64,000 nucleotides of DNA from a virus (IMGVR_UViG_3300002460_000024:1-64000), one strand, 5' to 3'; numbered from the stretch's first letter, positions 4,487 to 31,348 are shown. The notes: generated by a model not told the origin, from the letters alone. Numbers and translations are program-made.

Positions 4487-5197
4487 ATGCAGTATATAGC
4501 GTACAGGCGAGTTTCAACGGGCAAGCAAGCTAAATCCGGTCTGGGTTTGGAAGCTCAAGAGGCTGCAATTCAACAAATAATTAAACCGGATGACGAGATT
4601 CTATTTTCATTCACAGAGGCCGAAAGCGGAAAGAATGATAAAAGACCAGAGCTATTGAAGGCTATTGCAGCCTGTAAATTACATGGGGCGACGTTATTAA
4701 TCGCAAAACTGGACAGGTTGAGCCGCAATGCATCCTTTTTATTCACATTAAGAGACTCCGGACTTAAACTGTGTATAGCCGATATGCCCCAGGCCGACGA
4801 ATTCATGATAGGTATCATGGCTGTTATTGCTGACTGGGAAGGGAAAAGAATAAGAACCAGGATAAAAGAGGCCCTGAATGCCAAGAGGTCCAGGGGAGAG
4901 TCAATGGGCACCGTCGCAAACCTAACAGGCCGGACTATGGGTAACGTCGCCAATAAACAAAAATTCATTGAGCGCCTAAAGCCTTATAAATCTACCATTC
5001 TATACTTTATTAAGGAGGGCTGGACAAACGACCTGATCTTCAAAAGAATGCCCGAATTCCACCCAGATTTTAAAAGGCCCTTTTTGGATCGTGCGGTTAA
5101 GCATGTTAGAAAGGAATATGATGAGACGCAATTATTGTTGAAAACACCACAACATACAACACCACATATATGGGATTTTTCCCAAAAGGCTGAATAA
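4487..5197 (+). CDS. Serine recombinase (resolvase family)
   Basis: YRRVST catalytic Ser motif, ESGK..KRPEL, AKLDRLSRN. Confidence 0.92.
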   Translation: MQYIAYRRVSTGKQAKSGLGLEAQEAAIQQIIKPDDEILFSFTEAESGKNDKRPELLKAIAACKLHGATLLIAKLDRLSRNASFLFTLRDSGLKLCIADMPQADEFMIGIMAVIADWEGKRIRTRIKEALNAKRSRGESMGTVANLTGRTMGNVANKQKFIERLKPYKSTILYFIKEGWTNDLIFKRMPEFHPDFKRPFLDRAVKHVRKEYDETQLLLKTPQHTTPHIWDFSQKAE

Positions 5198-5383
5198 CAT
5201 TGAATATTACGCATAAATCCTATGACCGAGAGGTGTAATTCCAATTTAAGGCCCAATAAAAAAGCACTTGAAAATAAAAGCACTTTGGATATTTAGGGGA
5301 AAAAGCCCTGAGATTAATTTCGTCACCCCAAAAGAAAAACGGGTACAAAGACAATATCTAAAATAAAATATAGTTTAATAAAA

Positions 5384-6551: not shown

Positions 6552-6683
6552 CCCCTTGTGGGGTGCGAGCTTATAAAGTTCTTTTTTCTACGTTTTTTCT
6601 TTTTCTCTTTTGTTTGTTTTGTTCTCGTTACTTCTTTTCTTTCTTTTCTCTTTTTCTTTTTAAGCCCTCAACCCTACGGTAGA

Positions 6684-6905
6684 ATGGGACAGTCAAAAGA
6701 GGAACAAAGAGCCCGGTTGATAGCTAAAGGACAAGGCGCAACGCTATTTCAAGGCAAACCGCCTAGAAAACAAACTATTAAAAAGAAAAAGAAGCAGAAA
6801 AATAAAAAATCAAAGCATAAAAAGAAGTTTAAATATAAAAAGGCAGCTAGGCCCAATCCCCTGGATGCAGAATTAAAGAGAATTCAAAAAAGGCCTGTGG
6901 ATTAA
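6684..6905 (+). CDS. Small Lys-rich basic protein
   Basis: ATG at 6684 (MGQSKEEQ...), poly-K stretch. Confidence 0.5.
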   Translation: MGQSKEEQRARLIAKGQGATLFQGKPPRKQTIKKKKKQKNKKSKHKKKFKYKKAARPNPLDAELKRIQKRPVD

Positions 6906-7344
6906 TCTCGTCTCAAATAAAAATCTTATATTTGGCTTATGGTATTGATATCTTACTTTACACTCCTTATTGGAAACGTCATTAATCCCAAGGCTTGTAG
7001 GAATATTAAGGGCCATAAAATCTAAAATTGATTATTATGGATGATAAAAAAATACAGCTATTAAAGCCAAAAACAATTGAAGGCACTATAAACCCAATTG
7101 TAAATGGGCATATAAGCTATACCCTTCCCCAAGACATTTTAGAACAAAAAACAATTGATATATTAAACCACTTACAAGGGATGCGGGGAGATCAAGTAAA
7201 ATTAATTCTTGAAAATGTAGAAAGGCAAATTACCTTTCTAACCCTAGAATTTCCATATCATCCTCAAAAAGATTAACATACATCATTAAGGATCAAATAT
7301 TTAATGCTTTTGAGATAAATTTCATGCGAATCAAGCAAAGAAGT

Positions 7345-7497
7345 GGAAAGGCTGTCAATATGCACTTCGATAAAAAGGAATTTAACGCAGACGGCAACTA
7401 TGTACCGAAGAAAACTCCGGTTCTCGGTATGCGCCAAAGAGAGGGCCATGTTATTGCTAAAGGCATTGATACCCAATCTACACAAGAAATTAACTAA
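7345..7497 (+). pseudogene. IS1595-family (ISXO2-like) transposase fragment
   Basis: Reads GKAVNMHFDKK...KKTPVLGMRQREGHVIAK, resembling the GGKxxNxH...KTPVxGMxxRxG segment of IS1595 DDE transposases. Confidence 0.6.
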
Positions 7498-7630
7498 ATA
7501 ATTTAGATTATGAATACAGATGTAAAAACAGTAGAATTAAGACAGGGATGTAAAGAGATTGAATACGGCATTGAAACCCAATTTACACTAAATAAAAGCT
7601 AAATAATTTAGATTATGAATACAGATGTAA
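7462..7630 (+). repeat. Two copies (7462-7525, 7567-7630) of a ~64-bp repeat; third copy at 17412-17475
   Basis: GGCATTGAWACCCAATYTACAC...AAATAATTTAGATTATGAATACAGATGTAA. Confidence 0.9.
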
Positions 7631-8849
7631 CAGACCCCGAAATAACCAACTTTGATTGGTTCGATATGAGTTCTATTGAGGCCACGACCGGTGAGCCGTT
7701 AACAGACAAACAAAAGTGGAAAATTATAACTTCTTTGGAAGCAATTGCCCTCCTTCCTCACCTCTTAACCAAAGAAGAGCAGATATTAGACCTTAAAAGA
7801 TTTTTATGGGCGTTCGGCCTTGTTGAGGGCGACTTTACCATTGAGGGGGTGCTCAAGGTAAATAATCCACTTTGAAGTATCAAAGTTTTTAAACTCGCAT
7901 TTTTGATTATTAATCTGTAGATAGACCTTTCCCTTTTCTTCAAAGGGATGGCCGCTGAGAAACTTTTTGGTATGGCGTAGAATAGCCCTTTTTTTCAAAG
8001 TCATTTAAAGCATCCCTAAAATTCCACTCTCCTCCCGTAATGGTGGTTCCGTCTGAAAATGTTATTCTATAATACTCATCCTTTAGGGTAATTTCGTGCG
8101 GTCTTAAAGCATCCCCTCTTTTTGTCCTCTTTCCAAAAAATCTTTTAAACCAGCCAAACTTAGCGTCTCCCCCAGTTGGTGTAGACTCATATATTGATAC
8201 CATAGTAATAATATTTACCCCAAATATAACCCTTTTATACTAAAATCTCGTCACCAATAAACAATAATACTACATTTGATACGTTTTTAGGGGTAACGCA
8301 ATTAATCTGAAATAATGAAACGTTCAATAAAATTCTGGATATTAATATTTATAGTTTTTAATATTCTTGTTACCGCCTTTGGATGGTATAAGATTCCCAC
8401 ATGGTTTAATGGACCCATTACGGCTGATAGTATTATGATTAGCCTTATGTATGTTTGTTTATACGCAATTGATGGTATGCTCCTATGTGTTTTACTTATG
8501 AATATTATTCCTAAATTTAATAAGTGGATAGATAAAAACAAAGCCCCAAAACATTAATCTCGTAGCATGATAGACTCTCCTCTCCCTCCTCATATAGAAG
8601 CCATGATGAACTGGCTCCTTGAATTATACTCTTCCAGGTCCCAGCTATATGGAGAATTAATACACCTGTGCGATCAGAAATTCGGGGAACCGTGTGAGTT
8701 TGCAAAAGCATTCCAAGATCAAGAAGAAGAAAAGGCAGCATTACAATGGTGGTCTTGCATTGAGTCGCTTTATGATTTAGAAAAGGCTCACATATTGGTG
8801 AGTAATTTAATTGGCAACGCCATTAATGTGAAAAAATGAGAATATTTAC

Positions 8850-8967
8850 TATATTTGCTGTGATTACTAATATTAACTATGCAAATACAAACTTTAAAAC
8901 CCCTTTGGCAAGATGCAGTAACATCCAAACGGTTGATATTGGTAATCCTTCTTGTCAGGGGGCTTTT
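8850..8967 (+). promoter_or_regulatory. Bacteroidota promoter plus leader attenuator upstream of the HNH gene
   Basis: TATATTTG at 8850-8857; 8862-8877 pairs with 8932-8947 inside the cccctttggcaaga/tcttgtcagggg-TTTT terminator. Confidence 0.7.
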
Positions 8968-8973
8968 AATTTT

Positions 8974-9531
8974 ATGAAGCCACACGAAAATTTTAGTTTA
9001 AAAGATATTCCCGGAGAAATTTGGAAAGATATTCCAGAATGGGAGGGCTTTTATCAAGTAAGTAATTTGGGACGAATTAAATCTTTAAAAAGAGTGGTGC
9101 CACACACACATACTGTATATTCTACACAAAAAGAAAAAATACTTAAACCGGCATCAGACAGGAAAGGATATAAATATATATGCTTATATCGAAACCATAT
9201 TAGTAAAATTAAGAAGGTCCACCGTTTAGTATTACTGGCATTTAAGCACGACTCCCCCTTAACAGTTAATCATATAAACGGTGTTGTAGATGACAATTCC
9301 TTAATAAACTTAGAATATTTATCTGCTATAGAAAACAGCAGGGCCTATCGTAGTTTAAGCAGAGAGTTACCTATGGGAGTTTATAAATATTTCAACAAAT
9401 ACATAGCAAAAATAAAAAGAAACAACAAAAATATTCATTTAGGAAGTTTTAATACAATACCAGAAGCTAAAAGCGCCTACGAAAAAGCCCGTACCCATGA
9501 ACCCACATCGCCAACAATCCATAGTAAATAA
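8974..9531 (+). CDS. NUMOD4-HNH-AP2 homing endonuclease
   Basis: EIWKDIPEWEGFYQVSNLGRIKS, VHRLV...VNHING..DDN..NLEY, HLGSFNT..EA..AY; start moved to the ATG at 8974 after the attenuator. Confidence 0.9.
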   Translation: MKPHENFSLKDIPGEIWKDIPEWEGFYQVSNLGRIKSLKRVVPHTHTVYSTQKEKILKPASDRKGYKYICLYRNHISKIKKVHRLVLLAFKHDSPLTVNHINGVVDDNSLINLEYLSAIENSRAYRSLSRELPMGVYKYFNKYIAKIKRNNKNIHLGSFNTIPEAKSAYEKARTHEPTSPTIHSK

Positions 9532-10024
9532 GCTCGGTTACGACCCTACGGTTAAGCCCAAAGTTGCCGTCGCATATCAGCTTTACAACACCAGAGTAAA
9601 CAAACTAATAATAACAGGATCTTACCCATTATGCAAGGCAATGATGAAGAAAGAGCAGCAACTAAACCCCCTGAGCACATACAGAATCCTACCCGTTTAT
9701 ACGTAGCCCATTTAGAAGGCCATTCATTTCGTTGCATAAAAGCCTTAGCCCCCTATGATACTGATATGCCAAAAGGAATGGCTGATAAGATTTGCGACGC
9801 AAACGTAAGATCCGACATTTTAGTTACTCCAGCCGTCAAAACCTACCTCATAAAGCACTTTGAAATCGAGAATGAAAAAGAACTGAACCACCTGGCAAAG
9901 AAATCAATCCAAAAAGCACTTTTATTTTTGTATAATATATAATAAATTTAATGGGCAATCGTTAACTTTATATGAGATTAATTACGTCGCCCATACGATT
10001 TGTTGCCTGTTGTGGTGGCATTCG

Positions 10025-10118
10025 GGCTAATGGATTGGGGCTTAACGAAGTTTGCTTTATACCAAAATTAAAAAATAGAAAAATGATAAAGCAAATTTTG
10101 TTTAAGCCCGTGTTAGCC
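10025..10118. repeat. attC-like hairpin 1
   Basis: ggctaat...gggcttaacgaagtttgcttta / taaagcaaattttgtttaagccc...gttagcc; one extra base in the right arm. Confidence 0.8.
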
Positions 10119-10188
10119 GTCTGTTTTTGTTTTATTATTTTTTGAGAGGGGAGAAAAAAAGTTTAAAAATTTTATTTAAAAAATACTT

Positions 10189-10911
10189 ATGAAAAACAAT
10201 TTAGAAAAGTGGAATTACTACTTGGAGTTACTGAATGAAAAGGCAAGTGCTTTTATGGACACGATAAATCCATTAGTGCCAAGCATTTTTTACAAAGTAG
10301 AGTTGAACGGCAAAATAAATGACTGCACCGTTTTAAACAGGCACTATTCATTTGGATTATACTTTAACGGCAAGAAGCCAACGAATAAGGACATTGAAAA
10401 AATTGAAGCCGTTTTTAATAGCGAAATAGTTTTTACACCGAAGATGGCTTACTTTGATTACTCCTATGTATGGGGCATTTATGAAGGCAAAGAAAGTATA
10501 TCTAAAACGGCTATACACGTAAAAGATGTTTTTGAAAATAGGATTGCGTTTTTATCTTTTGCAGAGGCGGAAATAAAGGCGAAAGAAATTATAGAAAAAA
10601 ATGCAGAGGAAAAACTATTTAAAGAAACGCACAAGAAGGATGCTAATTATAAATATACTGAAAATGGATACAAGTTTTTAGGATGGCAAAATGGATGGAA
10701 GCACGTTTACTTTGATGCTGATGGAAATGTAACAGATGACAAAACGAAGCAAAAAACATTTGGCTACCTGACTGCCGATTATCCTGAATATGGAAAATGC
10801 AGAGAGCAAAAGCATAGAACAATTGAAGTAAGCCACAACCAAAGAGGAAGTGAGAATACAGTTAGTTGCCCGATTTGTATGATATACTGGAAATATGATT
10901 GCAGCGACTAA
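10189..10911 (+). CDS. Cassette cargo, hypothetical protein with C-terminal Cys/His cluster
   Basis: 240-aa ORF; C..H...CPIC. Confidence 0.7.
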   Translation: MKNNLEKWNYYLELLNEKASAFMDTINPLVPSIFYKVELNGKINDCTVLNRHYSFGLYFNGKKPTNKDIEKIEAVFNSEIVFTPKMAYFDYSYVWGIYEGKESISKTAIHVKDVFENRIAFLSFAEAEIKAKEIIEKNAEEKLFKETHKKDANYKYTENGYKFLGWQNGWKHVYFDADGNVTDDKTKQKTFGYLTADYPEYGKCREQKHRTIEVSHNQRGSENTVSCPICMIYWKYDCSD

Positions 10912-11224
10912 CCTCTTAATTTTTTAAAAATAGGTGAGGGCCAAAAACTATGGGCGGCCTTTAGCGCCAAAGCCTGTGTTGCCCATAGCCTTAAATCACG
11001 AAAAAATTGAGTATGAAACTAAATAGGAAAGTAACATTAGAGCCAAAGACCATTAACCTAAGAGTTGAAGATAGAATGCTTAGTATTAATTATCGAATAC
11101 GGGATGACATTACAGGAATTGGATTTGGTGATACTTGGGTTAATTTTACTCCTAGCGATAAGTTGATTGAAATATTAAAAACAGAAGTAAACGAAGCAAT
11201 TAAAAACTATAAAAAATAAACACA

Positions 11225-11578
11225 ATGGGAAATTTAATTAAACACGCAAAGTTTGAACTTGAACTAGCTGATATGTTCAATGAAAAAGGAGATTTTTACG
11301 GAGGCATGACCGCTGGTGCAGTTATGGAATTGATTAAGGTTTTTGAGAAACAAGGACATTCTGGTGGTTCGGCTCCAGGAGTAATTGCTTTGTTTTCAAA
11401 ACTAGCAAACTATGAAATAATATTTAATAGGATGAAATCAGAAATTGAAAAACAATTTGGAGTTAAAATAACAGAAGCTCCATTTACATATTTAAGTAAT
11501 GTAAAAGAAAACGAACTTATTTTATCATGCCAAAAAGATTACAATAATATGATAATGGCTGTATTGACCCCAAATTAA
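11225..11578 (+). CDS. Cassette cargo, phage hypothetical protein (QGHSGGSA motif)
   Basis: HAKFELE...ELIKVFEKQGHSGGSA; flanked by ORFs 11007-11219 and 11585-11794. Confidence 0.6.
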   Translation: MGNLIKHAKFELELADMFNEKGDFYGGMTAGAVMELIKVFEKQGHSGGSAPGVIALFSKLANYEIIFNRMKSEIEKQFGVKITEAPFTYLSNVKENELILSCQKDYNNMIMAVLTPN

Positions 11579-11882
11579 ATTTATATGAGCTTGATAGAAT
11601 CAACTATTTTTCACGGAACTAAATACTCATTTGATAAGAGTAAATTAATCTTCGTTGGCTTTTCAGAAAACGGTCTTAACCTTGTTTTTGAAACAGCAGA
11701 AGTTGAAATTACTATTACCGATATGAAAGACAGAGAGAGGCAGTACAAGGATATTATTAATGTATGGAAAAGCTACAAAGGTGATTTATTTTAATTTTTA
11801 AAAAGCGTGCAGGCCAAATTAAAAAAAGTACTAAAGAAACGAGAGGGTGAGTTTAGCTCCTACCGAAATTGCTGGTTATTCG

Positions 11883-11976
11883 GGCTAACCTCCGAGGCTT
11901 TGCGTCAGTTTTAAAAATACCAATGAAAAAAAACAGAAAAGACATTTTTAAAATTGCGTTAAAGCCGATGTTATGC
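11883..11976. repeat. attC-like hairpin 2
   Basis: ggctaac...ggctttgcgtcagttttaaaaat / atttttaaaattgcgttaaagcc...gttatgc. Confidence 0.8.
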
Positions 11977-12023
11977 TTAGTATTTTTTATCATTTTTTGT
12001 GCGAGGGCTTTACCTAACTAACT

Positions 12024-12461
12024 ATGAAAGACAGAAACTTACCACATTCGGACAATTGGGCGACACCGCCTTATGTTTACGATAAACTTAATGAGGAATA
12101 CAATTTCAATTTCGACCCATGCCCTTTGAAGCATGATATCACGAAATGGGACGGATTGGAAATTGAATGGAAGGAACGGAATTTTATTAACCCGCCTTAT
12201 TCAAAGGATCTAAAACCAAAATTCATTTTAAAGGCGGTTGATGAAATGAAGAAAGGAAAACTTTGCGTGTTATTACTGCCCGTTTCGACAAGCACAAAAC
12301 TATTCCATGATATCATCTTGGCGAACGCAACAGAGCCAGTAAAGTTTTTCAAGGGCAGAATTAAGTTTATTGGACATAATACGAAGGGAGAATTGGTAAG
12401 TAACAAAAGCCCGATGCACGATAGTATGTTAGTTGTATTCGATGGGCGGGAAAAAAAATGA
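12024..12461 (+). CDS. Phage DNA N6-adenine methyltransferase (Dam-type), cassette cargo
   Basis: WATP, FDPCP, NPPY, LLLPVSTST..FH, GRIKF. Confidence 0.88.
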   Translation: MKDRNLPHSDNWATPPYVYDKLNEEYNFNFDPCPLKHDITKWDGLEIEWKERNFINPPYSKDLKPKFILKAVDEMKKGKLCVLLLPVSTSTKLFHDIILANATEPVKFFKGRIKFIGHNTKGELVSNKSPMHDSMLVVFDGREKK

Positions 12462-12474
12462 TAAAAAATATTGA

Positions 12475-12641
12475 GCATAACTCCGAGGCTTTGCGCTGAA
12501 TTTCCTCCCTGCGGGAGATTCCGCTTACCAAGGGATGTGCGAAGGACGGAAGATTGAAAGCAGGGAGGAAATTCATTTTTTAAAAATAGGTGAGGGCCAA
12601 AAACTATGGGCGGGCCTTTAGCGCCAAAGCCTGTGTTGCCC
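12475..12641. repeat. attC-like hairpin 3 (long frame C)
   Basis: gcataac...aggctttgcgct / agcgccaaagcct...gttgccc; inner stem tgaatttcctccctgc/gcagggaggaaattca. Confidence 0.8.
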
Positions 12642-12683
12642 ATAGCCTTAAATGCTAGATAAATAAATTTAAATAACGATAAT

Positions 12684-13537
12684 ATGCAGTATAGTCCAAA
12701 ATTGAAAAAAGCAGCAGAAGAAATAAAAGCAATACTTACGAAGTATGATATTGCTGGTGTTGTATTATTACATACTCCGGGGCATAGTGAATACTTATTA
12801 CGATTAGACCCGTCTTATTCATGTGCTAATATGAATGAGAAAACAGGCGAAGTAAGATTAAAAGCTACCGAGGCATTGCATGGTAAAAAGAAACGTGACC
12901 AAATGTTAGAAGATACTACAAATATGATTGTTTGTTTATCGGACGTAACCGCTATGCAGGCCATGAATCTTATTGAACTTCGTAAATTACTTGAAACTAA
13001 ATTTGAAATAATAACACAGGATAACGGGCATACCACCCATGATACACAAAACAATTAAAACAAAAATTATGAATGAAAAACAAATGCTACAGTCCGCAGT
13101 AAATGAACTTCGTGGATTAAGAAAACAAAACGAAATTATGAAAGCTCGTTTAGATATGTTCGATACTATGACAGCAATATTGCACACAGATATTGCAAGG
13201 CAAAACGGAGATGCAATGCACCCTGATATTGTTTATGAAATTGATAAATATTTAACTAACTTAGAAAAAGAAGCCACCAATGAAACCAATTAAATTTCCA
13301 GAGGTTAATAAAACCTACGCAGAAAATCAACCTGAATATTTGCCGTTGCCAGTATTTAAAGCAGATACCCCACAAGGCGAATGTGTTTCTTGCTGGAAAC
13401 TTTCTTTTCGTGAAAGGATTAGAATATTATTTACAGGCAAGTTGTGGGTAAGTCTGCTTACATTTAATAAGCCACTTACTCCTTCTTATTTTACAACGAA
13501 GAAATCGGAAGTATTAACCTTTTCAAAAAATGAGTAG
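12684..13537 (+). CDS. Three-gene cassette cargo (124, 84 and 85 aa hypothetical phage proteins)
   Basis: Overlapping ORFs 12684-13058, 13039-13293, 13280-13537. Confidence 0.65.
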
Positions 13538-13657
13538 CATTTTTAAGGGGATTTTTAAAAAAAGCATAGCCTCGGAGGTTGCCCACAAAGGCGTATGGCC
13601 AAGCACAGTAAAGCAAACGTTTTTCAGTTTGCGATGTGGTTGCCGTTTTAAGGTTGT

Positions 13658-13809
13658 GGGCAACGGTTTCGTGTTGCCGAAGTTGATGGCGAGAAGAAGG
13701 AATAAAGGGGCCTTTAGCGCCAAAGGCAATGCGGGTTTATTCGTTCTTTAAAAGCCAGAAACAAGGTCAAACTTTCATCCCATCAATTTTGAGCAACACA
13801 TTGATAGGC
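13658..13809. repeat. attC-like hairpin 4 (long frame A), GAT core
   Basis: gggcaac...gtgttgccgaagttgatgg / ccatcaattttgagcaacac...gataggc. Confidence 0.82.
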
Positions 13810-13950
13810 TAAGTTTACCGGGGGAGTTGCAGATACCTTTAGAAAGTTTGTCACGAAACCGATAGGCTAAATTTAGGATGAGAGGTTTGAAAATTAATTG
13901 GCGAAATTTTGTAAAAATTTAAAAAGTAAACTAATAAATAAACGAAAAGT

Positions 13951-14250
13951 ATGGGATTATTCAGTAAAACACCTAAAGTAGAATTGCTACCGTTAGGCCA
14001 TAAAGTAGAATTAGGTACTCGATTTTGGAAAGTTTTTGAAAGCAAAGTTTATGAATGTCATGTTGCAAGACTTTCAATAAGCCGTTCTGATGAATTATTT
14101 TTATCGCAGAACCCAAGTAGTAATTATGATGAAACAAAGTATTTAATTCATACTATTTGCGACAAGCATGTTGGTTGGTTTCACGAAGAGGAAGTGGTTA
14201 AGATGATAAAGTTTAAAACAAAAAAAGAACTTTATGAAAGTGATAACTAA
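13951..14250 (+). CDS. Cassette cargo, hypothetical protein
   Basis: 99-aa ORF inside frame A. Confidence 0.65.
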   Translation: MGLFSKTPKVELLPLGHKVELGTRFWKVFESKVYECHVARLSISRSDELFLSQNPSSNYDETKYLIHTICDKHVGWFHEEEVVKMIKFKTKKELYESDN

Positions 14251-14336
14251 ACCTTTTAGCAGCTATGCTGCCCCGCCAATTCTTTTTTTAAACAGAGCAG
14301 CCGTGTGCGGTTTTGGGTTGTGGAGAGGTAAATTTA

Positions 14337-14415
14337 GCCTATCGTTGACGGGTATGCGTTCGGTTTTGCTCCAAAAAATAACACGGCAAAACTGACGACA
14401 TACCCGATGTTACAG
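14337..14415. repeat. attC-like hairpin 5
   Basis: gcctatc...cgggtatgcgttcggttttgc / gcaaaactgacgacatacccg...gttacag. Confidence 0.82.
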
Positions 14416-14469
14416 GCAGTTAAAAATGGCTAAACGAAAATTAATATAAACAACTAAAACAAAACAACT

Positions 14470-14754
14470 ATGTGTACAGTATCAATGATTGGAGACCACT
14501 TCAATGACAAATGGAAACAACCATTTTATCAGCAAACTTTTACCAACATTCCCGAAATTACGAAGGCGGAATTTGATGCACTCAAAAAGGAAGTTGAAGA
14601 AATGAAAGCATTGCTAAAGAGAGCAAAGTTATATGACGAAAAGAATGGAGAACCGAATTGCGAAATGGATGAGAAGATGACAATGCTTAGAAAATTTGCC
14701 GAAGCAGTTGGTATAAGTTTGGACGACATCATTAAGAAACCAGATGCCAAATAG
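14470..14754 (+). CDS. Cassette cargo, phage hypothetical protein (MCTVSMIGD start)
   Basis: 94 aa; the stop codon lies in the terminal inverted arm of the cassette. Confidence 0.75.
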   Translation: MCTVSMIGDHFNDKWKQPFYQQTFTNIPEITKAEFDALKKEVEEMKALLKRAKLYDEKNGEPNCEMDEKMTMLRKFAEAVGISLDDIIKKPDAK

Positions 14755-14768
14755 CCATTTTTTATTGC

Positions 14769-14898
14769 CTGTAACCGGACAAGCCTTTATTTAGTGCGGG
14801 CTTAAAAGCACTAAGCAACAATTAAAGATAAAAGATTATGGAAAGCACAAAAGTTGATAATAGCACAGAACCCGCATTGAATAAAGGCATTGTTAGCA
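14769..14898. repeat. attC-like hairpin 6
   Basis: ctgtaac...gcctttatttagtgcggg / cccgcattgaataaaggc...gttagca. Confidence 0.85.
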
Positions 14899-15074
14899 GC
14901 AGTACGGCATTAGAACCGAAAGTTGTTAATCACGGGAATGTGTTTGGAACAAAGAACTGGTACACATTTTATTGCCCACATTGTGGAAGCCAAATAACAA
15001 ACAGAAGTGCAAATTGCGAAGGAAGTTATCCAATTAAAGGATGTAATGGGGCAATAAAATGGAACGAGAAGTAG
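14838..15074 (+). CDS. Cassette cargo, small Zn-ribbon protein starting inside the hairpin loop
   Basis: CPHC...C...C; ATG at 14838 lies between the arms of hairpin 6. Confidence 0.7.
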   Translation: MESTKVDNSTEPALNKGIVSSSTALEPKVVNHGNVFGTKNWYTFYCPHCGSQITNRSANCEGSYPIKGCNGAIKWNEK

Positions 15075-15080
15075 TATTGC

Positions 15081-15915
15081 TGCTAACGGCTGCGGAATAA
15101 CAGCAGTTTCTTTAGTACGTTTTAATTTTAAGGTGGGATTTTAAAAATAAATTATATGAATGGAAAAAGTTTAAAAGTTCAGAAAGCTGAAAAGTTTGTA
15201 GATGATTTTATTAAATCAGAAGGGCATACGCCCACCTACAATGATGTAAAAGAATACATGGGCTTTAAGAGCAATGCTCAAGCCTATGGTATTTGTGCAA
15301 AATTCAGAGATAAAATGAAGGCAATTACTAAAAACGAAAAGAGAATACATATTGAGATTGATGATGAAAACCAAATTATGGTTAGCCGAAAAGGATTTAA
15401 CAACTACGAGGCACTTGGAGTTTTAGAGGCTACCGTTTTGATGGTTAAAAATGAAATATTAATAAGTATAAACAAGGGTAAATAATTATGAATCAGTTAG
15501 ACATAATAAAAGAAGAACTCGAAGATTGCTATGATTTATGGAGTAGATTTAGTTGTGACTGCCTTCATTATTATATGCTATATCTTGAAAAAAGGAAACG
15601 TCAATTAGAAATCATAAACAATTAAATGTATGTACTACCATAACACTACTAAAAACCTATTAAACGAATCAGAGTTTGAAGATTTCTACTGGAACTACGA
15701 GGAAGGGGATTCAATCTTTAAAACGGAACGTGGAAATGCAATACTTATACCAATGACCTACGAGGAGGTAATTGAAAAGGCAAAGCATGATAATATAGTC
15801 GAAGAATAGTTCTTTTAATTTTTAAAAAGCGGGATGGCCAAATTAAAAAAAGTACTAAAGAAACGAGAGGGTGAGTTTAGCTACTACCGAAATTGCTGGT
15901 TATTCAGTGTTAGCC
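15081..15915. repeat. attC-like hairpin 7 (long frame B) with a gene-containing loop
   Basis: tgctaac...gaataacagcagtttc (15095-15110) / gaaattgctggttattc (15889-15905)...gttagcc. Confidence 0.75.
15156..15485 (+). CDS. LexA-N-like winged-helix DNA-binding protein (cassette cargo)
   Basis: FIKSEGHTPTYNDVKEYMGFKS; followed by small ORFs 15488-15625 and 15630-15809. Confidence 0.6.
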   Translation: MNGKSLKVQKAEKFVDDFIKSEGHTPTYNDVKEYMGFKSNAQAYGICAKFRDKMKAITKNEKRIHIEIDDENQIMVSRKGFNNYEALGVLEATVLMVKNEILISINKGK

Positions 15916-16060
15916 TGAGTGCCATGCTAATAGGTGAACGCAAAGCTAAACGAACAAGGAGTTGGCTTATTCCGCAGCCGTTAGCCCGAATCGGGTTGGC
16001 GCAACAAAGTAAAGTCCTCCATTTTAGAGGACGATTTGTTGCCTGTTGTGGTGGCATTCG

Positions 16061-16211
16061 GGCTAACGGTTTCGTGTTGCCGAAGTTGATGGCGAGAAGA
16101 AGGAATAAAGGGGGCTGTGCGGCCAAAGGCTTGCGGGTTTATTCGTTCTTTAAAAGCCAGAAACAAGGTCAAACTTTCATCCCATCAATTTTGTGCAACA
16201 CATTGATAGGC
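16061..16211. repeat. attC-like hairpin 8 (second copy of frame A)
   Basis: Near-identical to 13664-13809 starting exactly at AAC. Confidence 0.85.
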
Positions 16212-16335
16212 GAAGTTTACCGGGGCCGTTGCAGATACCTAAAGAAAGTTTGTCACGAAACCGATAGGCTAAATTTAGGATGCGAGGTTTAAAAATTAAT
16301 TGGCGAAATTTTGAAAAAATTTAAAATTTAAATAT

Positions 16336-16871
16336 ATGAGTACAGAAAACATAGAACAATGCCCAGAGTTTCCATACTTCGGAGCCTCTTATCCTGATGC
16401 AAGATGTGTAAGTGGATATTTACACGATATGGATAGCTGTGATGAACATGGTAATTTATATGTAATGAGTGAAAGTCACCCATGCCCATTTTGTAATACA
16501 AAAGAATTTTTAAAAAACCAACGGGACAATGAGGCTGATATGACCAAAGTGAAAAAATGGATGGAAAATATTAAAAACGAATATAGCTATAAATAATTAT
16601 GAAAGACTTATTAAAGCTCCTATGGGAAAAGAAATGGGAAGCCGATGAAGAATATACTAAAAATGCAAATAGATATTCAGAAGGCAAAAGTGATGCTTTT
16701 TTATTTTGCATAAATGAAATTCAACATCCAAAATGTAAAGCGGATATTAAAGTTTTGGTGAATGGAAGGGTGGGTTATACTACCTCTGTTGTGGCTCATT
16801 CGGGGGGTATATACCCAGTATGGTTTGATGGTGGCGTGGAGTTTGTAAATGCTAAAGACGTAACCTTTTAA
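16336..16871 (+). CDS. Two-gene cassette cargo (86-aa Cys-rich and 90-aa hypothetical proteins)
   Basis: ORFs 16336-16596 and 16599-16871. Confidence 0.65.
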
Positions 16872-16948
16872 CAGCTATGCTGTACCGCCAATTCTTTTTT
16901 TTAACAGAGCAGCCGTGTGTGACTTTGGGTTGTGGGGAGGTAAATTTA

Positions 16949-17040
16949 GCCTATCATATATCTGTATTTATCACAATGCAACATATTTAAAAACAGTACG
17001 TTAAATACGGTATATTTCAAACAATGAAAAAACGATTGTA
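16949..17040. other. attI-like junction
   Basis: The last core site, gcctat^c, is followed by AT-rich DNA with no hairpin and then the recombinase ATG. Confidence 0.55.
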
Positions 17041-17436
17041 ATGAATATAGATAGATGGTCAGAGCAATTCGAGAAGGATATGCAAGTAATTCGTAATAGC
17101 CAAAGCACCCGTGATAATTATGGGTGCCAGGTTAAAATGTTTTTGGCATACTTTGAAAAACTCAACTACACTTCTCCTGAAAGAATTAATGCGGAAAAGA
17201 TAAAAGATTATTTGCTTACAAAAATTAGCAATAACAATCAGCGTCACGCCCATTCTGCTATAAAACATTTCTATAAAATTACAGTTCACCAGGAGCTTAA
17301 GTTTAGATTTATTCAATATGCGGAAAAAGAGAAGAGGCATCCCATAATTTTAAGCAGGGAGGAAACTAAAAGATGGTTTGAGGCGTGTACTAATGTAAAG
17401 CATAAGTGCATGGCATTGAAACCCAATTTACACTAA
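17041..17436 (+). pseudogene. Truncated tyrosine recombinase (integron-integrase/Xer-like N-terminal SAM domain)
   Basis: RNSQSTRDNY, IKDYL, SAIKHFYK, KRHPIILSREE, NVKHK; cut at 17412 by the 64-bp repeat before the catalytic R-H-R-Y residues. Confidence 0.85.
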
Positions 17437-17475
17437 ACAAAAAGCAAATAATTTAGATTATGAATACAGATGTAA
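17412..17475 (+). repeat. Third copy of the 64-bp GGCATTG repeat
   Basis: Matches 7567-7630; supplies the MNTDV start of ORF 17460-17708. Confidence 0.9.
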
Positions 17476-18084
17476 AAAAAGAGGTTAAAACAATAGAAGT
17501 GATTATACCACCAGACACAGACGAGGCAGTTCATATAATAAGATTAATTTTCCCCAATGGGTATAATGTTGCAATGACCCCAAATGCTTTAAAGGAGGTT
17601 ATAAATGAGCATTCCGAGAAATATGGGGTTATAATTGATGATGATATGAATAGAGAGAAATTTGATATGATTTTAAAAGAAAGACGCCTCTCCGCTTCTA
17701 AGGATTAGTCCTGTCTATTTCTTATTATTTCAATTCCATCGTATAGCTCTTGAAAGAATAATTCGGGGAGGATATGCACATACTTAAATATAATTTTTAC
17801 GTCATCTCCCTTCTCCTCTATCAAATCCGCATATTACATATTCAGCCGTGCCAATATCTATTTTATCCTCCTCAGAAATAAATAGAATATCCTCGTAAGG
17901 ATATGAGTATATGAATTCATGGAGAAGAGTTTTTGTAATCGTGTTGTAGTCGGGCCTCTCTTCAATAATTTTTAGATTATTAAAACGAATATTATGACTT
18001 TTACTTACAGAATCGAACGAATACTCGACAATGCTATCTGGGAATAAATTGCATATATTCTTTAAATAATTGTATATCAGTAAT

Positions 18085-18695
18085 TTACTCGTCATCATGG
18101 TCATCGTAGGCGTCAAACTTTTTACGAGCCCGTAACTTGTCCTGGATAGTTACCACTCCGGCAGTAATTCCAACAACCAGAGAGACAAAAGAAAGTAAAT
18201 GAAGCCCCACAACCACCCAGGAGTCAAAATTACCAAGCCATCCGAATAATTGTGTCACCCCATAAATCCCTGCTGATATTACCCAAACAAGCAATCCATT
18301 TCCTCCTGGGGGAGTATGATTAACATGATCTATTACATTCATTTTCTTTCGTAGATTTTACCCTGTGGACTTTTTACTTTTGTGGGCTGCATCCACCCTA
18401 AGGCATCTTTAAGCAACGCAGTTATAGCGTCAGGGCATAACCCTATTACAACAGAATATATTGAAAACCATTCATATTTTATCAACTTGGTAGTCAGTTC
18501 TGGCCTTATATTAAACAAGATGCATAGAGCAACAGCCAGTGGAACAGAATGCAAAAGCCTAATCCAATTGTCCTTTAAATAGAACCAAAGGCTTCCTTTT
18601 ACTGGTGAAGCATGACTTTCTCGTTTTCGGGTCTTATAGTAGCCCCAATTAGCTATGAAAATTCCTAAGAATAGATAAATGAAACTGTAAAGCAT
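18085..18695 (-). CDS. Two membrane proteins, holin candidates (18085-18342, 18339-18695)
   Basis: Two to three hydrophobic helices each, basic C-termini, next to a lipoprotein. Confidence 0.5.
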
Positions 18696-18791
18696 AATTT
18701 CTAAGTTTAGATCAAATTTAATAAAAAAAAATCAAATTACTCTTAAGACGCTCTGCTCCTACTGCGCTAGTTATATTATAGGTATAAATGC

Positions 18792-19361
18792 TCATTTTGG
18801 GGCGACGCGATTAATGCTGATGTATGGTGGAATTAGGCCGAGTCCTATCTTAAGTCGTAGTTTTTTAAAAATAAATATCGTCAAAACGAATACACCAATC
18901 CCAATACATACCCAACTTTGCCAGAAGGAGAGCCACTTTTTCTTAATAACTACCGGAGGCGAATATTCAGAATGCCAATGTTCTTTTATTTCTTGGTAGT
19001 GATGCTCAAACCATTGAAGTTTTATTTTTACTTCGGCACACTCTCCGTCAACGGTTAAATGCCCATCTTTTACTTCTACTGTAGCTTTATTTCCTCTTTT
19101 GTCTATTTCTGTAACCTTAAAATCCTTACACGGTACTGAATCTTTAAAATGAATCTCAAATGAATCTCTTGGGATTAAAACAACACTATCCCGTGGAACA
19201 ATCGAGTCTTTTTTAATCACTATTATACTATCCTTAATTATTTTTGAGCAATGGGTAGAGCACCATTTGGCCGTATTGCAGCTACCAAGAAAAAAAATAG
19301 CAACTACTACCAATATAATTTTTATTATCACTAACTCTAAAACTACTTTTTTTGCTCTCAT
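18792..19361 (-). CDS. Lipoprotein with C-terminal TM helix (spanin-like)
   Basis: Lipobox FLGSC, repeated KDS motifs, C-terminal TM segment. Confidence 0.55.
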   Translation of the reverse strand: MRAKKVVLELVIIKIILVVVAIFFLGSCNTAKWCSTHCSKIIKDSIIVIKKDSIVPRDSVVLIPRDSFEIHFKDSVPCKDFKVTEIDKRGNKATVEVKDGHLTVDGECAEVKIKLQWFEHHYQEIKEHWHSEYSPPVVIKKKWLSFWQSWVCIGIGVFVLTIFIFKKLRLKIGLGLIPPYISINRVAPK

Positions 19362-28891: not shown

Positions 28892-29593
28892 GCTTTTTTA
28901 AGGTAATTTTATAGTGACTTCCTTTAAGTTCATTGCGTAAATATACACGTTTTCTCGTAATAAATAAAGTTTATTTACTAAGTTCTTCTAAAAGACTATC
29001 GGCCATTTCAGCCGCATTTCGACCATGTGCTATTAATTCCATCCCTTTGGGATTTGAAATCATAGCTGCCATAGCTAAGCCAGCAAAATGTTCTCGCTTA
29101 GATAAACCTATATGCACATCTGTTTCTACAATTCGCCCATTCTTATCATATTTAAGCGGAACTATTAAGGGAAACGCTAAATTATATTTTTTTGGTTCCA
29201 TTATTTAAAATCTGTTTGGTTTAATAGTTTCTTGATTACCTCCTGTTCATGTTCTGAGAAGGTGCGACGTAATTTATCTGCCAACTTTACCCAATCCTCT
29301 GTTGAGTGAGTAACCCACCAGTTCATTAAATCCGTTTGACCATTTTTGGCCGCTCTGGTTATTACCTCGTTTGCTATTCCCAACTTTTCAAGTTCAGTTA
29401 TTATAGCGCACAAATGCCCCTCCAACTTTACCTTGTCATTTTGAAGTAAAATAATAGATTCTTTGTCGTCGGGGTGATGGATGGCTTTTCCTTTTGATCC
29501 TTCCCTAAACCCTACATCATATCCACAATTATAATCACTTTGTCCTGAATCACCACACGGCATAATATTTTGTTTTAGTTAATCTTTAAAACG

Positions 29594-29621
29594 AAAACCC
29601 CTACGTTTTATTGTAGGGGCT
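29594..29621 (-). terminator. Intrinsic terminator
   Basis: cccctac/gtagggg stem with a T run on the minus strand. Confidence 0.55.
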
Positions 29622-29668
29622 CCCAGAGAAATAAGTAAAAAAGCTATAGATGGGATCAAATATAACAT

Positions 29669-31348
29669 TTATTTCATTGCTTTTGTTTTTTCTATCACTT
29701 CATCTACCGTAATAGAATGAAGTGGCTTTTTAAATATCCAGCTATTGTTTGTTCGATCGTAGACCTTCTCTGGATCTAACCACGCGCTTAAAACTAAAGT
29801 TGGGGTATCGAATAATCCCGCCATGTGAGCGCCCCCTGATTCATTACAGATCACCAATCCCGCTCCTTTAATCAACCGTAACACATCAAATAATGATATA
29901 GGCAAATGCTCTCCGGGTATGTTCTTACAACGGGCTACAAATTGGTCACAGATTATTACTCTTTGGCCTGACGCTATTAATCTTGTCGCCAACTCAATCC
30001 AATACTTCAAAGGCCAAGCCCTTATACTATCTATTGGCCCCACAAATGGGAATAATACCGTCACCCCCTCATATCCTTCTAATGAGGTAATATGTTTAAC
30101 CGGAATATTATATGGTATTGTTTTTAATTTCTTGCAATACCAATCTTTTAAAGAACCTTTTATTTTCTCTGCATATTCTTTTCTCTGATCTTCCGGCAAA
30201 CTGTCCTCATTTGAAGTTAGGTCTATATCTATTGGGTCGCCGTGGTAGCTACATATTTTAACTCCCGGAAGTTTTAAGACGCTTGCTAGTTGTAGATTTA
30301 CGGTGACGTAAAGCTTGATCCCACGCCCCGGATTTTCCATCATCCATCCCATGAGGGCGTAGGCCATACATATAAAATCACCTACGCCCCTATCTTTCAT
30401 GAGAATTCTAATCGGTGCCGTATATTTGAATTCGTGTTTATTTAGTTCTGCAGTTACTTCTTTTCGGTCGAGTTCTATTAAAACCGAGTGAGAGTCGGCT
30501 TCACCAGCGTATACTTCCAACATTAATGGCGTCGCCACTAAGCCAGACACATACAATACATCCGGTCTATTCCCTTCTAACCCTCCTCCTTGTAATACTG
30601 GTGGAGTGAAATAATCAATCTTAAAAGTTTTCATGTTTAAAATAAACATCCCCTGAACGTAAATCCATCCCTGTACCTCATCTTCAAATCGAACGTGCCA
30701 CATCCCAATATAATGTTCATTCTCGAAGTGGGTAATGGCTGATAAGGAGAGGAAGGAGCTTCCTGGGAGCATCTTTTTTACATGATCTGCTAATCCGGTT
30801 TCGTGGAAGGTGTGTTCTCGCCAAGACCATCCTTCGAGTTTAAATATCCTGAGTGGATCTAAACTGTATAAAATATAAAGCTCGTCATTATGGACTATTG
30901 GGAGCCAGTTTTTCTCTCCAATTTTTCTGTTTACGTATGGAAGCTCACAATAATCTACAAATTCGATTGTGCTGCGGGTTACTTTGGAAATAACAGGTTT
31001 TATGAAAGTCGAGTCCTCCCAGCCCCGTTTTGTTATACACATCGTATGGATTGCGTATAGCTCTCCTTTGTATCTAAAAAGGCGAAAATCCTCTATTTTT
31101 GAGTGAGGTGGATAGCCTTTTTTTTCGAGGTGATAAATATTATCTATCTCTCCGGCCCTCATTTTATCAATCTTTTCTACGATTAAAGAAACCGTAGAAT
31201 CGTTGGTATAATAATGTGAAATCGGCTCTACCCGAACGATAAATTCCCTTACCCATGTATCGTGAGAAACACAGGACGGATTAAATACACCACCATCACT
31301 GTTTGGTAGGGAGCCTTGAGAAAGGAGTCTATGCTTTTTTAGTATCAT
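29669..31348 (-). CDS. Beta-propeller glycosidase-like domain fused to a GT9-like glycosyltransferase
   Basis: FNPS, EDFRL, EKNWLP; then GVGDFI, RAWP, NESGGAHMAGLFDTPTLVL. Confidence 0.75.
   Translation of the reverse strand: MILKKHRLLSQGSLPNSDGGVFNPSCVSHDTWVREFIVRVEPISHYYTNDSTVSLIVEKIDKMRAGEIDNIYHLEKKGYPPHSKIEDFRLFRYKGELYAIHTMCITKRGWEDSTFIKPVISKVTRSTIEFVDYCELPYVNRKIGEKNWLPIVHNDELYILYSLDPLRIFKLEGWSWREHTFHETGLADHVKKMLPGSSFLSLSAITHFENEHYIGMWHVRFEDEVQGWIYVQGMFILNMKTFKIDYFTPPVLQGGGLEGNRPDVLYVSGLVATPLMLEVYAGEADSHSVLIELDRKEVTAELNKHEFKYTAPIRILMKDRGVGDFICMAYALMGWMMENPGRGIKLYVTVNLQLASVLKLPGVKICSYHGDPIDIDLTSNEDSLPEDQRKEYAEKIKGSLKDWYCKKLKTIPYNIPVKHITSLEGYEGVTVLFPFVGPIDSIRAWPLKYWIELATRLIASGQRVIICDQFVARCKNIPGEHLPISLFDVLRLIKGAGLVICNESGGAHMAGLFDTPTLVLSAWLDPEKVYDRTNNSWIFKKPLHSITVDEVIEKTKAMK

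Follow-up and report, generated by a model that had tools for sequence, protein, structure and literature searches.

Is the row of small genes and hairpins that lies at 9995-17436 in the genome of the uncultured phage IMGVR_UViG_3300002460_000024 an integron-like platform for gene shuffling, as had been proposed from a reading of the sequence alone? Integrons, the classic case of a dedicated machine for gene capture, have been tied to the IntI clade and to bacteria. The window analyzed here consists of the first 64 kb of the 74.8-kb IMG/VR virus record, and coordinates refer to this window unless another contig is named. In our view, the region is probably an array of nine mobile cassettes, one member of a family of integron-like platforms for recombination that is confined almost entirely to viral contigs. 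What had been noticed is real, and it is out of the ordinary. The platform that the sequence-only reading had proposed is supported by linked sites and by boundary exchange in relatives, but the recombinase of this particular phage is truncated, and the recombinase family is not IntI.

The two ends of most units are complementary

Nine units follow one another in 9995-16955, and the unit order is a hairpin site, a GTT/GAT arm, one or more open reading frames (ORFs), and a complementary arm that ends in AAC/ATC. Every sizeable ORF in 9995-17436 is located on the + strand. The eight hairpin sites that had been listed between the small ORFs were recovered both by folding and by a hairpin search, and they are named here J0-J7; a half site is also found at 10913-10996. 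In the window, the hairpins are flanked on one side by AAC (once AAT and twice ATC) and a spacer of 5-7 nt, and on the other side by 1-3 nt and GTT (twice GAT), with stem, loop, and stem in between. When the hairpins of the whole 74.8-kb record are ranked by strength, 7 of the first 12 fall in 10-16 kb.

The sequence-only reading had also claimed that, in seven units, the arm at the start is the reverse complement of the end of the same unit, and a repeat search together with an anchored arm test located all seven pairs exactly where they had been described. In 7 of the 9 units, 10-11 of the 12 positions beyond the GTT/GAT triplet are complementary between the unit's own ends, as against an average of 4.6/12 matches for pairs of ends that do not belong to the same unit and of 4.75 for the two arms of one junction. 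The observed sum of complementarity was reached in 0 of 100,000 permutations (p<1e-5). The inverted arms include pairs of 29 nt (11970-11998/12453-12481, 93%), 24 nt (14409-14432/14752-14775, 92%), and 17 nt (13803-13819/14327-14343, 94%).

The recombinase gene is truncated and its relatives are Xer-like

The last core of the array (GCCTATC, 16949-16955) has no hairpin behind it, and 85 nt separate it from the ATG at 17041, as the sequence-only reading had described. The tyrosine recombinase that it had placed there is only partly present: the + strand ORF at 17041-17436 encodes 131 aa that contain the N-terminal SAM-like domain of such an enzyme and nothing more, and the catalytic domain is missing. 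Moreover, neither a PF00589 catalytic domain nor any other tyrosine recombinase was found in the whole 74.8-kb record. The reading frame departs from the recombinase alignment after a KHK motif, at ~17412. A repeat of 64-70 nt is present at 7462-7531, 7567-7630, and 17412-17475, the third copy being the point at which the recombinase is cut off. Because the alignment ends exactly where this repeat begins, the gene has evidently been broken by a rearrangement at the repeat. The repeat covers the end of a small ORF together with the beginning of the one that follows (ATGAATACAGATG). Judged from its domain content, the fragment is certainly non-catalytic and this copy is a recombinase-less array, which is probably frozen, or is now altered by nothing more than general recombination or a recombinase provided in trans.

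Full-length homologues (P0001-P0008) have ~280 aa, are 41-62% identical to the fragment, and keep the catalytic residues. A profile search with these homologues yielded 28 loci in viral contigs and 17 loci in metagenome contigs, three of the latter being duplicates of IMG/VR loci (L095 = L073, L096 = L081, and L098 = L078). Only 2 of ~185,000 prokaryote species genomes contained the recombinase, both on contigs of metagenome-assembled genomes (MAGs), a count that was obtained with a narrow search pattern and is indicative only. The recombinase loci share almost no nucleotide similarity outside the recombinase gene.

The best matches of these recombinases are XerA proteins (PDB 5hxy, 176 bits; NCBIfam NF040815, 160-204 bits against a cut-off of 220), and the scores with other Xer models are also below the equivalog cut-offs (TIGR02225, 126-181 bits, cut-off 330; TIGR02224, 118-175 bits, cut-off 335). 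The integron-integrase model TIGR02249 was matched in two stretches with 115-178 bits, against a cut-off of 265. In the alignment to IntI4 (2a3v), IntI4 residues 176-247 correspond to 29 phage residues, and ~43 residues are missing. We take this region of IntI4 to contain the IntI-specific helix that reads extrahelical bases. Since the IntI-specific insertion is missing and TIGR02249 is matched only piecewise and below its cut-off, these recombinases are best classified as Xer-like members of the Xer/IntI neighbourhood, not as IntI, and thus as lying outside the integron family proper.

Hairpin sites accompany the recombinase gene in other phages

The sequence-only reading would have been contradicted if full-length recombinase homologues were not associated with such hairpins. 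A hairpin search without any sequence filter returned hairpins with the same flanks upstream of the recombinase gene in at least 13 of the 28 viral loci, and the flank pattern in these relatives is yTAAC, G + 4 nt, stem, loop, stem, T, GTTA. An initial filter for ungapped AAC/GTT stems had returned no sites because the stems have bulges, and a genome-wide sliding scan for local folds lacked specificity.

A covariance model, R1, was built from 16 aligned sites, all of them from other contigs and none from the window. Its consensus fold has 23 pairs, 16 of which show compensatory changes among the 16 sites. The use of such a custom model had been proposed as a check, and R1 was run over the 64-kb window with filters off and on both strands. 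It detected J5 (14764-14903; 81.9 bits, E 1.4e-15), J0 (10020-10123; 34.9 bits, E 1.7e-5), J1 (11878-11981; E 0.005), and J4 (14332-14420; E 0.016), together with a weak match to J7 (16056-16216; E 0.56). All the matches are on the + strand and inside the array, and the rest of the 64 kb contains nothing below E 0.5 on either strand. As to membership in the R1 family, the window thus presents four matches with E <= 0.016 and a fragment akin to the linked recombinases. When R1 was run over the recombinase loci, 72 same-strand matches, 16 of which are the training sites, were found in 167 kb upstream of the recombinase gene and 1 in 265 kb downstream, in 20 loci. Hence, full-length homologues do accompany such hairpins, and in total ~80 sites are now found in 25 contigs.

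In an alignment of 81 sites, which was fitted to the model and therefore favours structure somewhat, 91.8% of the cells are paired, compared with 65.3% after shuffling, and the covariation score is 0.619, compared with 0.161 for shuffled alignments (0/500 shuffles) and 0.06-0.11 for slid partners. Changes on both sides occur in 18 of the 23 pairs. The G after AAC pairs with the T before GTT, and this pair is G.T in 77 of the 81 sites. Conserved G.T wobbles are found on the + strand at several positions, and A.C mismatches are almost absent. Since the wobbles are conserved and the mismatches nearly absent, we infer that the coding strand is the strand selected to fold.

Cassettes are exchanged at the AAC boundary

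In the family, the arms are ~12 nt long, with the consensus ATTGCnnnTAAC before the hairpin and GTTAnnnGCAGT after it, and they include a free 3-nt barcode. This consensus, as well as the AAT, ATC, and GAT variants of the window, agrees with the earlier statement that the cores deviate from RYYYAAC/GTTRRRY. Of 48 consecutive site pairs, 38 (and 38 of the 44 with sites <1.3 kb apart) have a barcode behind GTT that matches the one ahead of the following AAC; by comparison, 4.5% of 5320 between-locus pairs match by chance and 5 of 76 same-site pairs match. Evidently, it is the two ends of a cassette that form a pair, not the two arms of a junction, and this is the signature expected of a circular form.

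It had been suggested that related phages be compared for changes of cassette content and order at these boundaries, and two comparisons are informative. L064 and L069 are phages with 92-96% identity, in which the similarity is lost at GGATAAC|G and regained at TAAC|AATAATATG, ~60 nt upstream of the start of the recombinase; between these points there are unrelated cassettes of 757 and 1081 nt, respectively, so that the cassettes have been replaced exactly at the AAC boundaries. The second comparison concerns cassette content present in two arrays: one methylase cassette, with ~72% identity, is common to L059 (~6617-7404) and L068 (~8211-9010), where its neighbours are unrelated. The two copies are similar from the position directly behind one AAC, through the hairpin, up to the following AAC. 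The arms of the two copies differ at two positions, and both differences are compensated (C:G vs T:A; G:C vs C:G). Because the homology breaks at AAC| in both comparisons, the crossover would take place at or inside AAC on the coding strand, and the hairpin would travel with the downstream ORF. A methylase homologous to the ORF of the L059/L068 cassette is also encoded in L062 (14588-15283), outside any array and with no sites; it could be either a source gene or the remains of a cassette that has decayed.

In most loci, the last cassette ends with ...ATTGCnnnTAAC, which is followed by a ATAAAATATGTATTACA-like sequence, and the recombinase ATG is found ~55 nt later. Compared pairwise, the recombinase modules of different phages become similar 3-12 nt ahead of the terminal TAAC, and in no case does the similarity reach further upstream. 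According to the alignment of the recombinase upstream regions, the window contains a diverged copy of this junction at 16955|16956 (...AGCCTATC|ATATATCTGTATTTATCACA, consensus ATTGCnnnTAAC|ATAAAATATGTATTACA), the terminal R'' box and the attI-like junction spanning 16943-17040 on the + strand. By analogy with integrons, the terminal junction plays the part of an attI site.

Next to the recombinase, the unit is in many cases very short, its GTTA...TAAC arms enclosing ~70 nt or less, as in L059 (9840-9949), L075 (9834-9948), and L081 (9841-9949). In some cases this unit codes for a small CxxC peptide, the stop codon of which falls in the R'' arm, and L069 contains one 'empty' unit of 41 nt at ~5293-5333. 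In L086 (1-2483), which encodes the recombinase closest to the window fragment, a cassette and the junction are located upstream of the gene, and two sites are located downstream on the same strand (1833-1951 and 2336-2475), so that arrays can lie on both sides.

The mechanism that we propose can be summarized as follows. On the coding strand, a cassette is composed of a hairpin site (G + 4-nt spacer, ~20-bp imperfect stem, loop, stem, T), the GTTAnnnGCAGT arm, the ORF or ORFs, and the ATTGCnnnTAAC arm. Upon circle closure, the complementary arms would extend the cassette hairpin into one long stem. The adjoining Xer-like recombinase would excise cassettes as circles and insert them at the TAAC|ATAAAATATGTATTACA junction, with a crossover at or inside the AAC of the coding strand, so that the hairpin would move with the downstream ORF. 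The folded coding strand would be the substrate, and the long (~71-nt) loops would also serve translation initiation. In the phage studied here, the catalytic domain has been lost by the repeat rearrangement, and several sites are degenerate or duplicated. A Tad3-like Thoeris inhibitor and a Dam methylase would be its counter-defence cargo.

Inverted repeats of 12-29 nt flank each unit and an invertase-like gene is located 5 kb upstream, and both observations could be understood if each ORF were an invertible segment (inverton) flipped by a recombinase, e.g., the serine invertase encoded at 4487-5197. We give almost no credit to this explanation: the array ORFs of 20 loci are co-oriented, with 95 on the + strand and 5 on the - strand, related phages differ by replacement and not by inversion, and each repeat pair has its own barcode. 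It is just as hard to believe that the units are transposons, or elements similar to miniature inverted-repeat transposable elements (MITEs), that insert into hairpin targets. Their terminal inverted repeats do begin with GTT and end with AAC, but neither a transposase nor target-site duplications were found, the units always abut through a conserved site, and the arrays terminate at a conserved junction next to the gene of a tyrosine recombinase. Both readings were rejected on the basis of ORF orientation, the replacement pattern, the barcodes, and the lack of a transposase.

Cargo genes and start codons in the loops

Two ORFs of 9995-17436 can be assigned clearly to families: the product of the ORF at 11225-11578 matches Tad3, a Thoeris inhibitor (Pfam, E 8.5e-15), and the ORF at 12024-12461 encodes a Dam-type DNA methyltransferase (Pfam Dam, E 1.1e-17; PHROG methyltransferase, E 2.3e-34). 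Among 106 cassette ORFs of other loci, Pfam identified at least 14 DNA methyltransferases, Mom, Tad6, and Lar, as well as a PAPS-reductase-type protein and a radical-SAM protein. The cargo would therefore be mainly counter-defence. Most of the cassette proteins (106 of 123, window included) have no relative in the set, and the cassettes of the window are unique to it, except that a 50% identical Dam is encoded elsewhere in L081.

In 31 of 73 sites, mostly those with ~71-nt loops and J5 among them, the downstream ORF starts inside the loop, and the site probably doubles as a translation-start module. A start codon in a loop would suit a host without Shine-Dalgarno pairing, as in Bacteroidota.

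These start codons, together with the conserved G.U pairs on the mRNA-sense strand, would also be expected if the hairpins were RNA-level or regulatory operon modules (translation start, processing, termination) that are reshuffled solely through homologous recombination between repeats and in which the recombinase is uninvolved. There is a precedent for this in the promoter/stem-loop cassettes (PeSLs) of T4-type phages (PMC2839356, PMC4122927), the closest analogue in phages that has no recombinase. Furthermore, long intergenic modules are duplicated with different cargo, one junction looks homologous or illegitimate, and the window array persists without an intact recombinase. In spite of this, we regard an exclusively RNA-level role as unlikely. 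It does not explain why a 3-nt barcode matches between ends that are 150-1300 nt apart (38/48 vs 4.5%) and covaries between orthologous cassettes, why homology breaks exactly at the invariant AAC, or why the sites are linked to the recombinase gene on one side and one strand in unrelated phages, and an RNA role can coexist with recombination. The PeSLs resemble the present sites in being repeated stem-loop intergenic motifs that flank small variable ORFs in plastic phage regions, and in the gain, loss, and replacement of genes between close relatives. However, PeSLs are promoter-terminator motifs that are thought to use homologous recombination and no site-specific recombinase, and they have no AAC/GTT cores, cassette-specific complementary ends, or terminal junction beside a recombinase. 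The recombinase linkage and the cassette-specific arms of the phage array argue against its being a PeSL.

Weighing the cassette-array proposal

Several observations weigh against a mobile cassette array. AAC/GTT was part of the first site filter; the same flanks, however, were already in the unfiltered hairpin list. An RNA-level role would account just as well for the G.T bias and for the start codons located in loops. No site was found in 10 of 30 recombinase loci, of which 6 have <1.3 kb of upstream sequence; L054, L058, L071, and L078, with 6-10 kb upstream, and the metagenome locus L085, with 10 kb upstream, have no site, and L086 has sites on both sides of the recombinase gene. In the window, U1 and U2 (2 of the 9 units) violate end complementarity, one junction has no left stem, and large intergenic modules are duplicated within the array; ordinary homologous or illegitimate recombination evidently also shapes it. 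Activity in this phage without a helper is unlikely, as predicted from the truncated gene.

The points counted in favour of the cassette array include, apart from those presented above, an antisense copy of the predicted circle junction in U8 (24/24), the absence of the backbone motif GGYGACGNNATTAAT from the array, and the recombination by IntI1 of an R'' box from Polaribacter phage P12002L (PMC9892861), all of which are described below. A wider proposal, towards which we lean by a modest degree, is that the family is a virus-restricted analogue of integrons without IntI, in which a Xer-like recombinase would act on folded coding-strand sites that double as translation-start modules and would move counter-defence genes (DNA methylases, Thoeris inhibitors, and restriction-alleviation proteins) between unrelated phages, each cassette having a site of its own.

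Organization of the window array

Seven of the units are regular, and decayed or reshaped features are found in U1, U2, U8, and U5/U9, as well as in the nested site J2. All the features described in this section are on the + strand. The distal array edge (9995-10031) is a 37-nt remnant of a cassette 3' end that finishes in the R'' box GGGCTAAT, and it is a copy of 16031-16067 (direct repeat, 95%, self-BLAST). Site J0 (10020-10123) contains the AAT variant of R'', a 5-nt spacer, a 24-bp stem with a 25-nt loop, GT, and GTTAGCC. Unit U1 (10032-10912) comprises this hairpin and the ORF at 10189-10911 (240 aa, no family), ends with GCGACTAAC, and shows weak end complementarity. Unit U2 (10913-11889) contains three ORFs, at 11007-11219, 11225-11578 (Tad3-like), and 11585-11794. 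It starts with the degenerate half site, in which 10916-10996 is a 97.6% copy of the 3' half of J2 without the left stem, and it is probably composite because its arms do not match.

Site J1 (11878-11981) is 84% identical to the L081 site at 7482-7560 (BLAST), and it is followed by the Dam methyltransferase ORF of unit U3 (11890-12481), the cassette with the 29-nt complementary arms. Site J2 (~12470-12650) is made of GCATAAC, a spacer, GGCTTTGCGC ... GCGCCAAAGCC, TGT, and GTTGCCC, and a perfect 16-bp hairpin is nested in its loop (12497-12575). Unit U4 (12482-13664) carries three ORFs without families (12684-13058, 13039-13293, and 13280-13537); its arms are GTTGCCCATAGCC and the complement ending in GGGCAAC, with 10/12 arm matches. 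Site J3 (~13653-13815) is composed of GGGCAAC, GGTTTC, a 19-bp stem with a ~93-nt loop, ATT, and the GAT variant GATAGGC, and it is duplicated as J7 (16056-16216) with 93% identity.

Unit U5 (13665-14343) contains the ORF at 13951-14250 between the arms GATAGGC.../...GCCTATC (11/12 arm matches), and unit U9 (16068-16955) contains the ORFs at 16336-16596 and 16599-16871 and also ends with GCCTATC. The cores of both units show a compensated AAC>ATC and GTT>GAT change, and both have a common non-coding frame (5' 273 nt, 3' 94 nt) around different ORFs. The 273-nt module is found directly after GGGCAAC (13665) and recurs directly after GGCTAAC (16068), which fits the AAC boundary seen in related phages.

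Site J4 (14332-14420), identified as a hairpin and as a covariance-model match, is followed by the ORF of unit U6 (14344-14775), located at 14470-14754 (PHROG 10166), and this unit has 24-nt arms. J5 (14764-14903) is the best family match, since its arms ATTGCCTGTAAC and GTTAGCAGCAGT both fit the consensus perfectly; its 70-nt loop holds the ATG (14838) of the next ORF, and the site is homologous to sites of L059 and L063 (BLAST). Unit U7 (14776-15087) encodes a small zinc-ribbon-like protein (14838-15074). In unit U8 (15088-16067), the site J6 is split, with the left stem at 15092-15110, the right stem at 15889-15905, and R' at 15909, and three ORFs are located within the 'loop' of this split site (15156-15485, 15488-15625, and 15630-15809).

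The predicted circle junction of a unit is its own R'' end joined to its own hairpin start. The 3' tail of U8 contains, at 15968-15991, an antisense copy of U8's own predicted circle junction with 24/24 matching positions, and similar antisense copies with 21/24 each are located in U5 (13849-13872) and U9 (16251-16274). No internal antisense copies were found in 50 cassettes of other loci, and they are peculiar to this window.

Genome setting of the array

The window carries phage genes that encode a RecE-like exonuclease, an Erf-like annealing protein, a virion protein, and an HNH endonuclease. The backbone motif GGYGACGNNATTAAT (<=1 mismatch) is present in 41 copies on both strands between 778 and 61608, against 0.26 expected, and in zero copies in 9992-18800, where ~6 were expected; one copy, at 9977-9991, abuts the distal array edge. 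The absence of the motif from 9992-18800 suggests that the history of the array differs from that of the rest of the genome, and that the array did not originate with the backbone.

A megablast search with the array region and 25 kb of backbone gave no match among 50,697 phage records, and the 382-aa neighbouring gene has no relative among the viral contigs. A 30-nt pattern taken from the 273-nt duplicated module had zero occurrences in the search, and a 16-nt repeat pattern was uninformative, as it gave 50 single matches, the number that chance predicts. No tRNAs were found, and the Rfam scan returned no family, including at the hairpin sites. For the region, 12 groundwater or soil DNA sequencing runs are listed, and there is no RNA run among them; some of these runs contain no more than 17-35% of the sequence words of the region and may include variants of the array. 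PHROG scans of the large backbone ORFs pointed to no host or lineage. A Shine-Dalgarno-like motif was detected in 4 of 57 ORFs, one related array was found in a Flavobacterium MAG contig, and Polaribacter phage P12002L contains a cassette of this type; on these grounds, we infer a host within the Bacteroidota.

Upstream of the array there are a serine recombinase/invertase-like gene (4487-5197) and the HNH endonuclease gene (8836-9531), and no link of either to the array was found. The phage also encodes a GroEL-type chaperonin (35345-36934, - strand; PHROG 5725, E 1e-141) and contains an ORF of 2939 aa at 38288-47107 on the - strand. The two ends of the record (3-110 and 74738-74834) have a common repetitive stretch of ~97 nt, 88-90% identical, which is a GTCGCCGTAGCC-like tandem, and the 74.8-kb record may represent a circularly closed or terminally redundant genome rather than 66% of one.

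Comparison with integrons and Xer systems

The phage arrays resemble integrons in several respects. They consist of mostly single-gene, promoterless-looking cassettes with a hyper-diverse gene content, and their sites are imperfect palindromes in which R boxes lie outside and L boxes inside, AAC/GTT is invariant, the spacer is unpaired, and the loop varies. At its start, each cassette is complementary to its own end, as in the signature of a circular intermediate, and a non-hairpin junction site lies beside a tyrosine recombinase gene of the Xer/IntI neighbourhood. Thus, with regard to integron membership, an attC-type palindrome, own-end complementarity, and a junction beside the recombinase are all present. 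The arrangement of array, junction, and sense recombinase corresponds to the classical order read on the bottom strand, which is the strand that folds and recombines in the classical integron (PMC8946536).

The differences are equally clear. The phage recombinase has no IntI-specific insertion and scores below the TIGR02249 cut-off. The phage R arms have ~12 nt with a barcode, whereas those of integrons have 7 nt, and the core is nnnTAAC / GTTAnnn instead of RYYYAAC / GTTRRRY. The spacer is asymmetric (5 nt vs 1 nt), and the stems are longer than those of classical attC sites. The crossover would be on the AAC side, with the hairpin before the ORF, whereas integrons recombine at G|TT of R' and have attC after the ORF. 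The phage ORFs lie on the folding strand and point towards a co-oriented recombinase, whereas integron cassettes are transcribed away from a divergent intI. Finally, the phage sites have start codons in their loops, and the system is phage-carried and nearly absent from prokaryote genomes as screened with the narrow search pattern. To judge from these comparisons, the system works like an integron, but it has no IntI domain and does not follow the core consensus, and it differs in the side of the crossover and in the orientation of its genes, features by which integrons are defined.

Clusters of attC sites without an integrase (CALINs) have been reported in 17 phages, including Polaribacter phage P12002L, in which they are associated with methylase genes (Qi et al. 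2023, PMC9892861). In that work, integron tools detected 2-3 sites per phage, the sites of P12002L were read as divergent, and IntI1 recombined P12002L_attC2 at G|TTAGGC and failed on attC1 (PMC9892861). Our mapping of the primers revealed that P12002L_attC1 is a hairpin site of the present type and that attC2 is the terminal R'' box on the other strand. In P12002L (L082), the gp35 methylase (~29250-30080) is accompanied by a hairpin site, the arm GTTAGGCAC, and the complementary end GTGCCTAAC, and no recombinase homologue was found at E 1e-20. P12002L has a second site at 32692-32915, followed by a 'mini-unit' (GTTAGGTG...CACGCTAAC).

The occurrence of CALINs in phages, the recombination of P12002L_attC2 by IntI1, and the R''-L''...L'-R' layout with AAC and GTT as in attC could be taken to mean that the window sites are ordinary attC sites, i.e., a CALIN captured from or served by the IntI of a host integron, and that the Xer-like gene is an unrelated phage integrase. 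We find this quite improbable in view of the tight directional linkage of the sites to the Xer-like gene and to a conserved junction, and of the near-absence of this recombinase from the prokaryote genomes covered by the narrow search. In addition, the ORF polarity and the crossover side are opposite to those of integron cassettes, the spacer asymmetry is 5 nt vs 1 nt, and P12002L_attC1, the hairpin site of the present type, is precisely the one on which IntI1 failed (PMC9892861). As to the definition of a CALIN, the window shows 8 sites and a truncated recombinase, and the status of these sites as attC would hinge on the attC model.

The window array resembles the CALIN of P12002L in that, in a phage with a Bacteroidota host (a predicted one for the window), DNA methyltransferase genes are flanked by attC-like sites and a working recombinase is missing. 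Nevertheless, no dedicated recombinase, arm barcode, junction site, or family is described in PMC9892861, whereas the window has 9 units and the ~80 sites of 25 contigs are accompanied by a linked recombinase family. Our literature searches returned no description of this recombinase-site system, the nearest report being PMC9892861. The site family was thus glimpsed in the P12002L study and not recognised as a system with its own recombinase.

The Xer/dif systems (XerA, XerC/D, and the integrative mobile elements exploiting Xer, IMEX) are close insofar as the best sequence matches of the phage recombinase are XerA proteins. However, the phage recombinase falls below the equivalog cut-offs of 220, 330, and 335, and Xer systems act at a single double-stranded site, where they resolve dimers or integrate entire elements. 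We know of no Xer system that maintains arrays of hairpin-bounded cassettes. The R'' arm (e.g., TTGCGCATAAC) may resemble a dif half-site, as in the E. coli dif sequence.

Implications for phage accessory regions

If our interpretation is true, these arrays would be a phage mirror image of the bacterial chromosomal integrons that store defence genes, in which integron logic is carried out with a different and smaller recombinase, an opposite gene polarity, and a phage-only distribution. If recombination is confirmed, the published 'CALIN' of P12002L would be reinterpreted, and the family would represent a second solution to single-strand hairpin recombination, independent or early-diverged, that can be compared with IntI. 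The R1 model combined with the arm barcode would then constitute a signature for harvesting as yet unknown counter-defence genes from viromes, and the cassette arrays would explain how anti-defence genes are replaced so rapidly in the accessory regions of phages.

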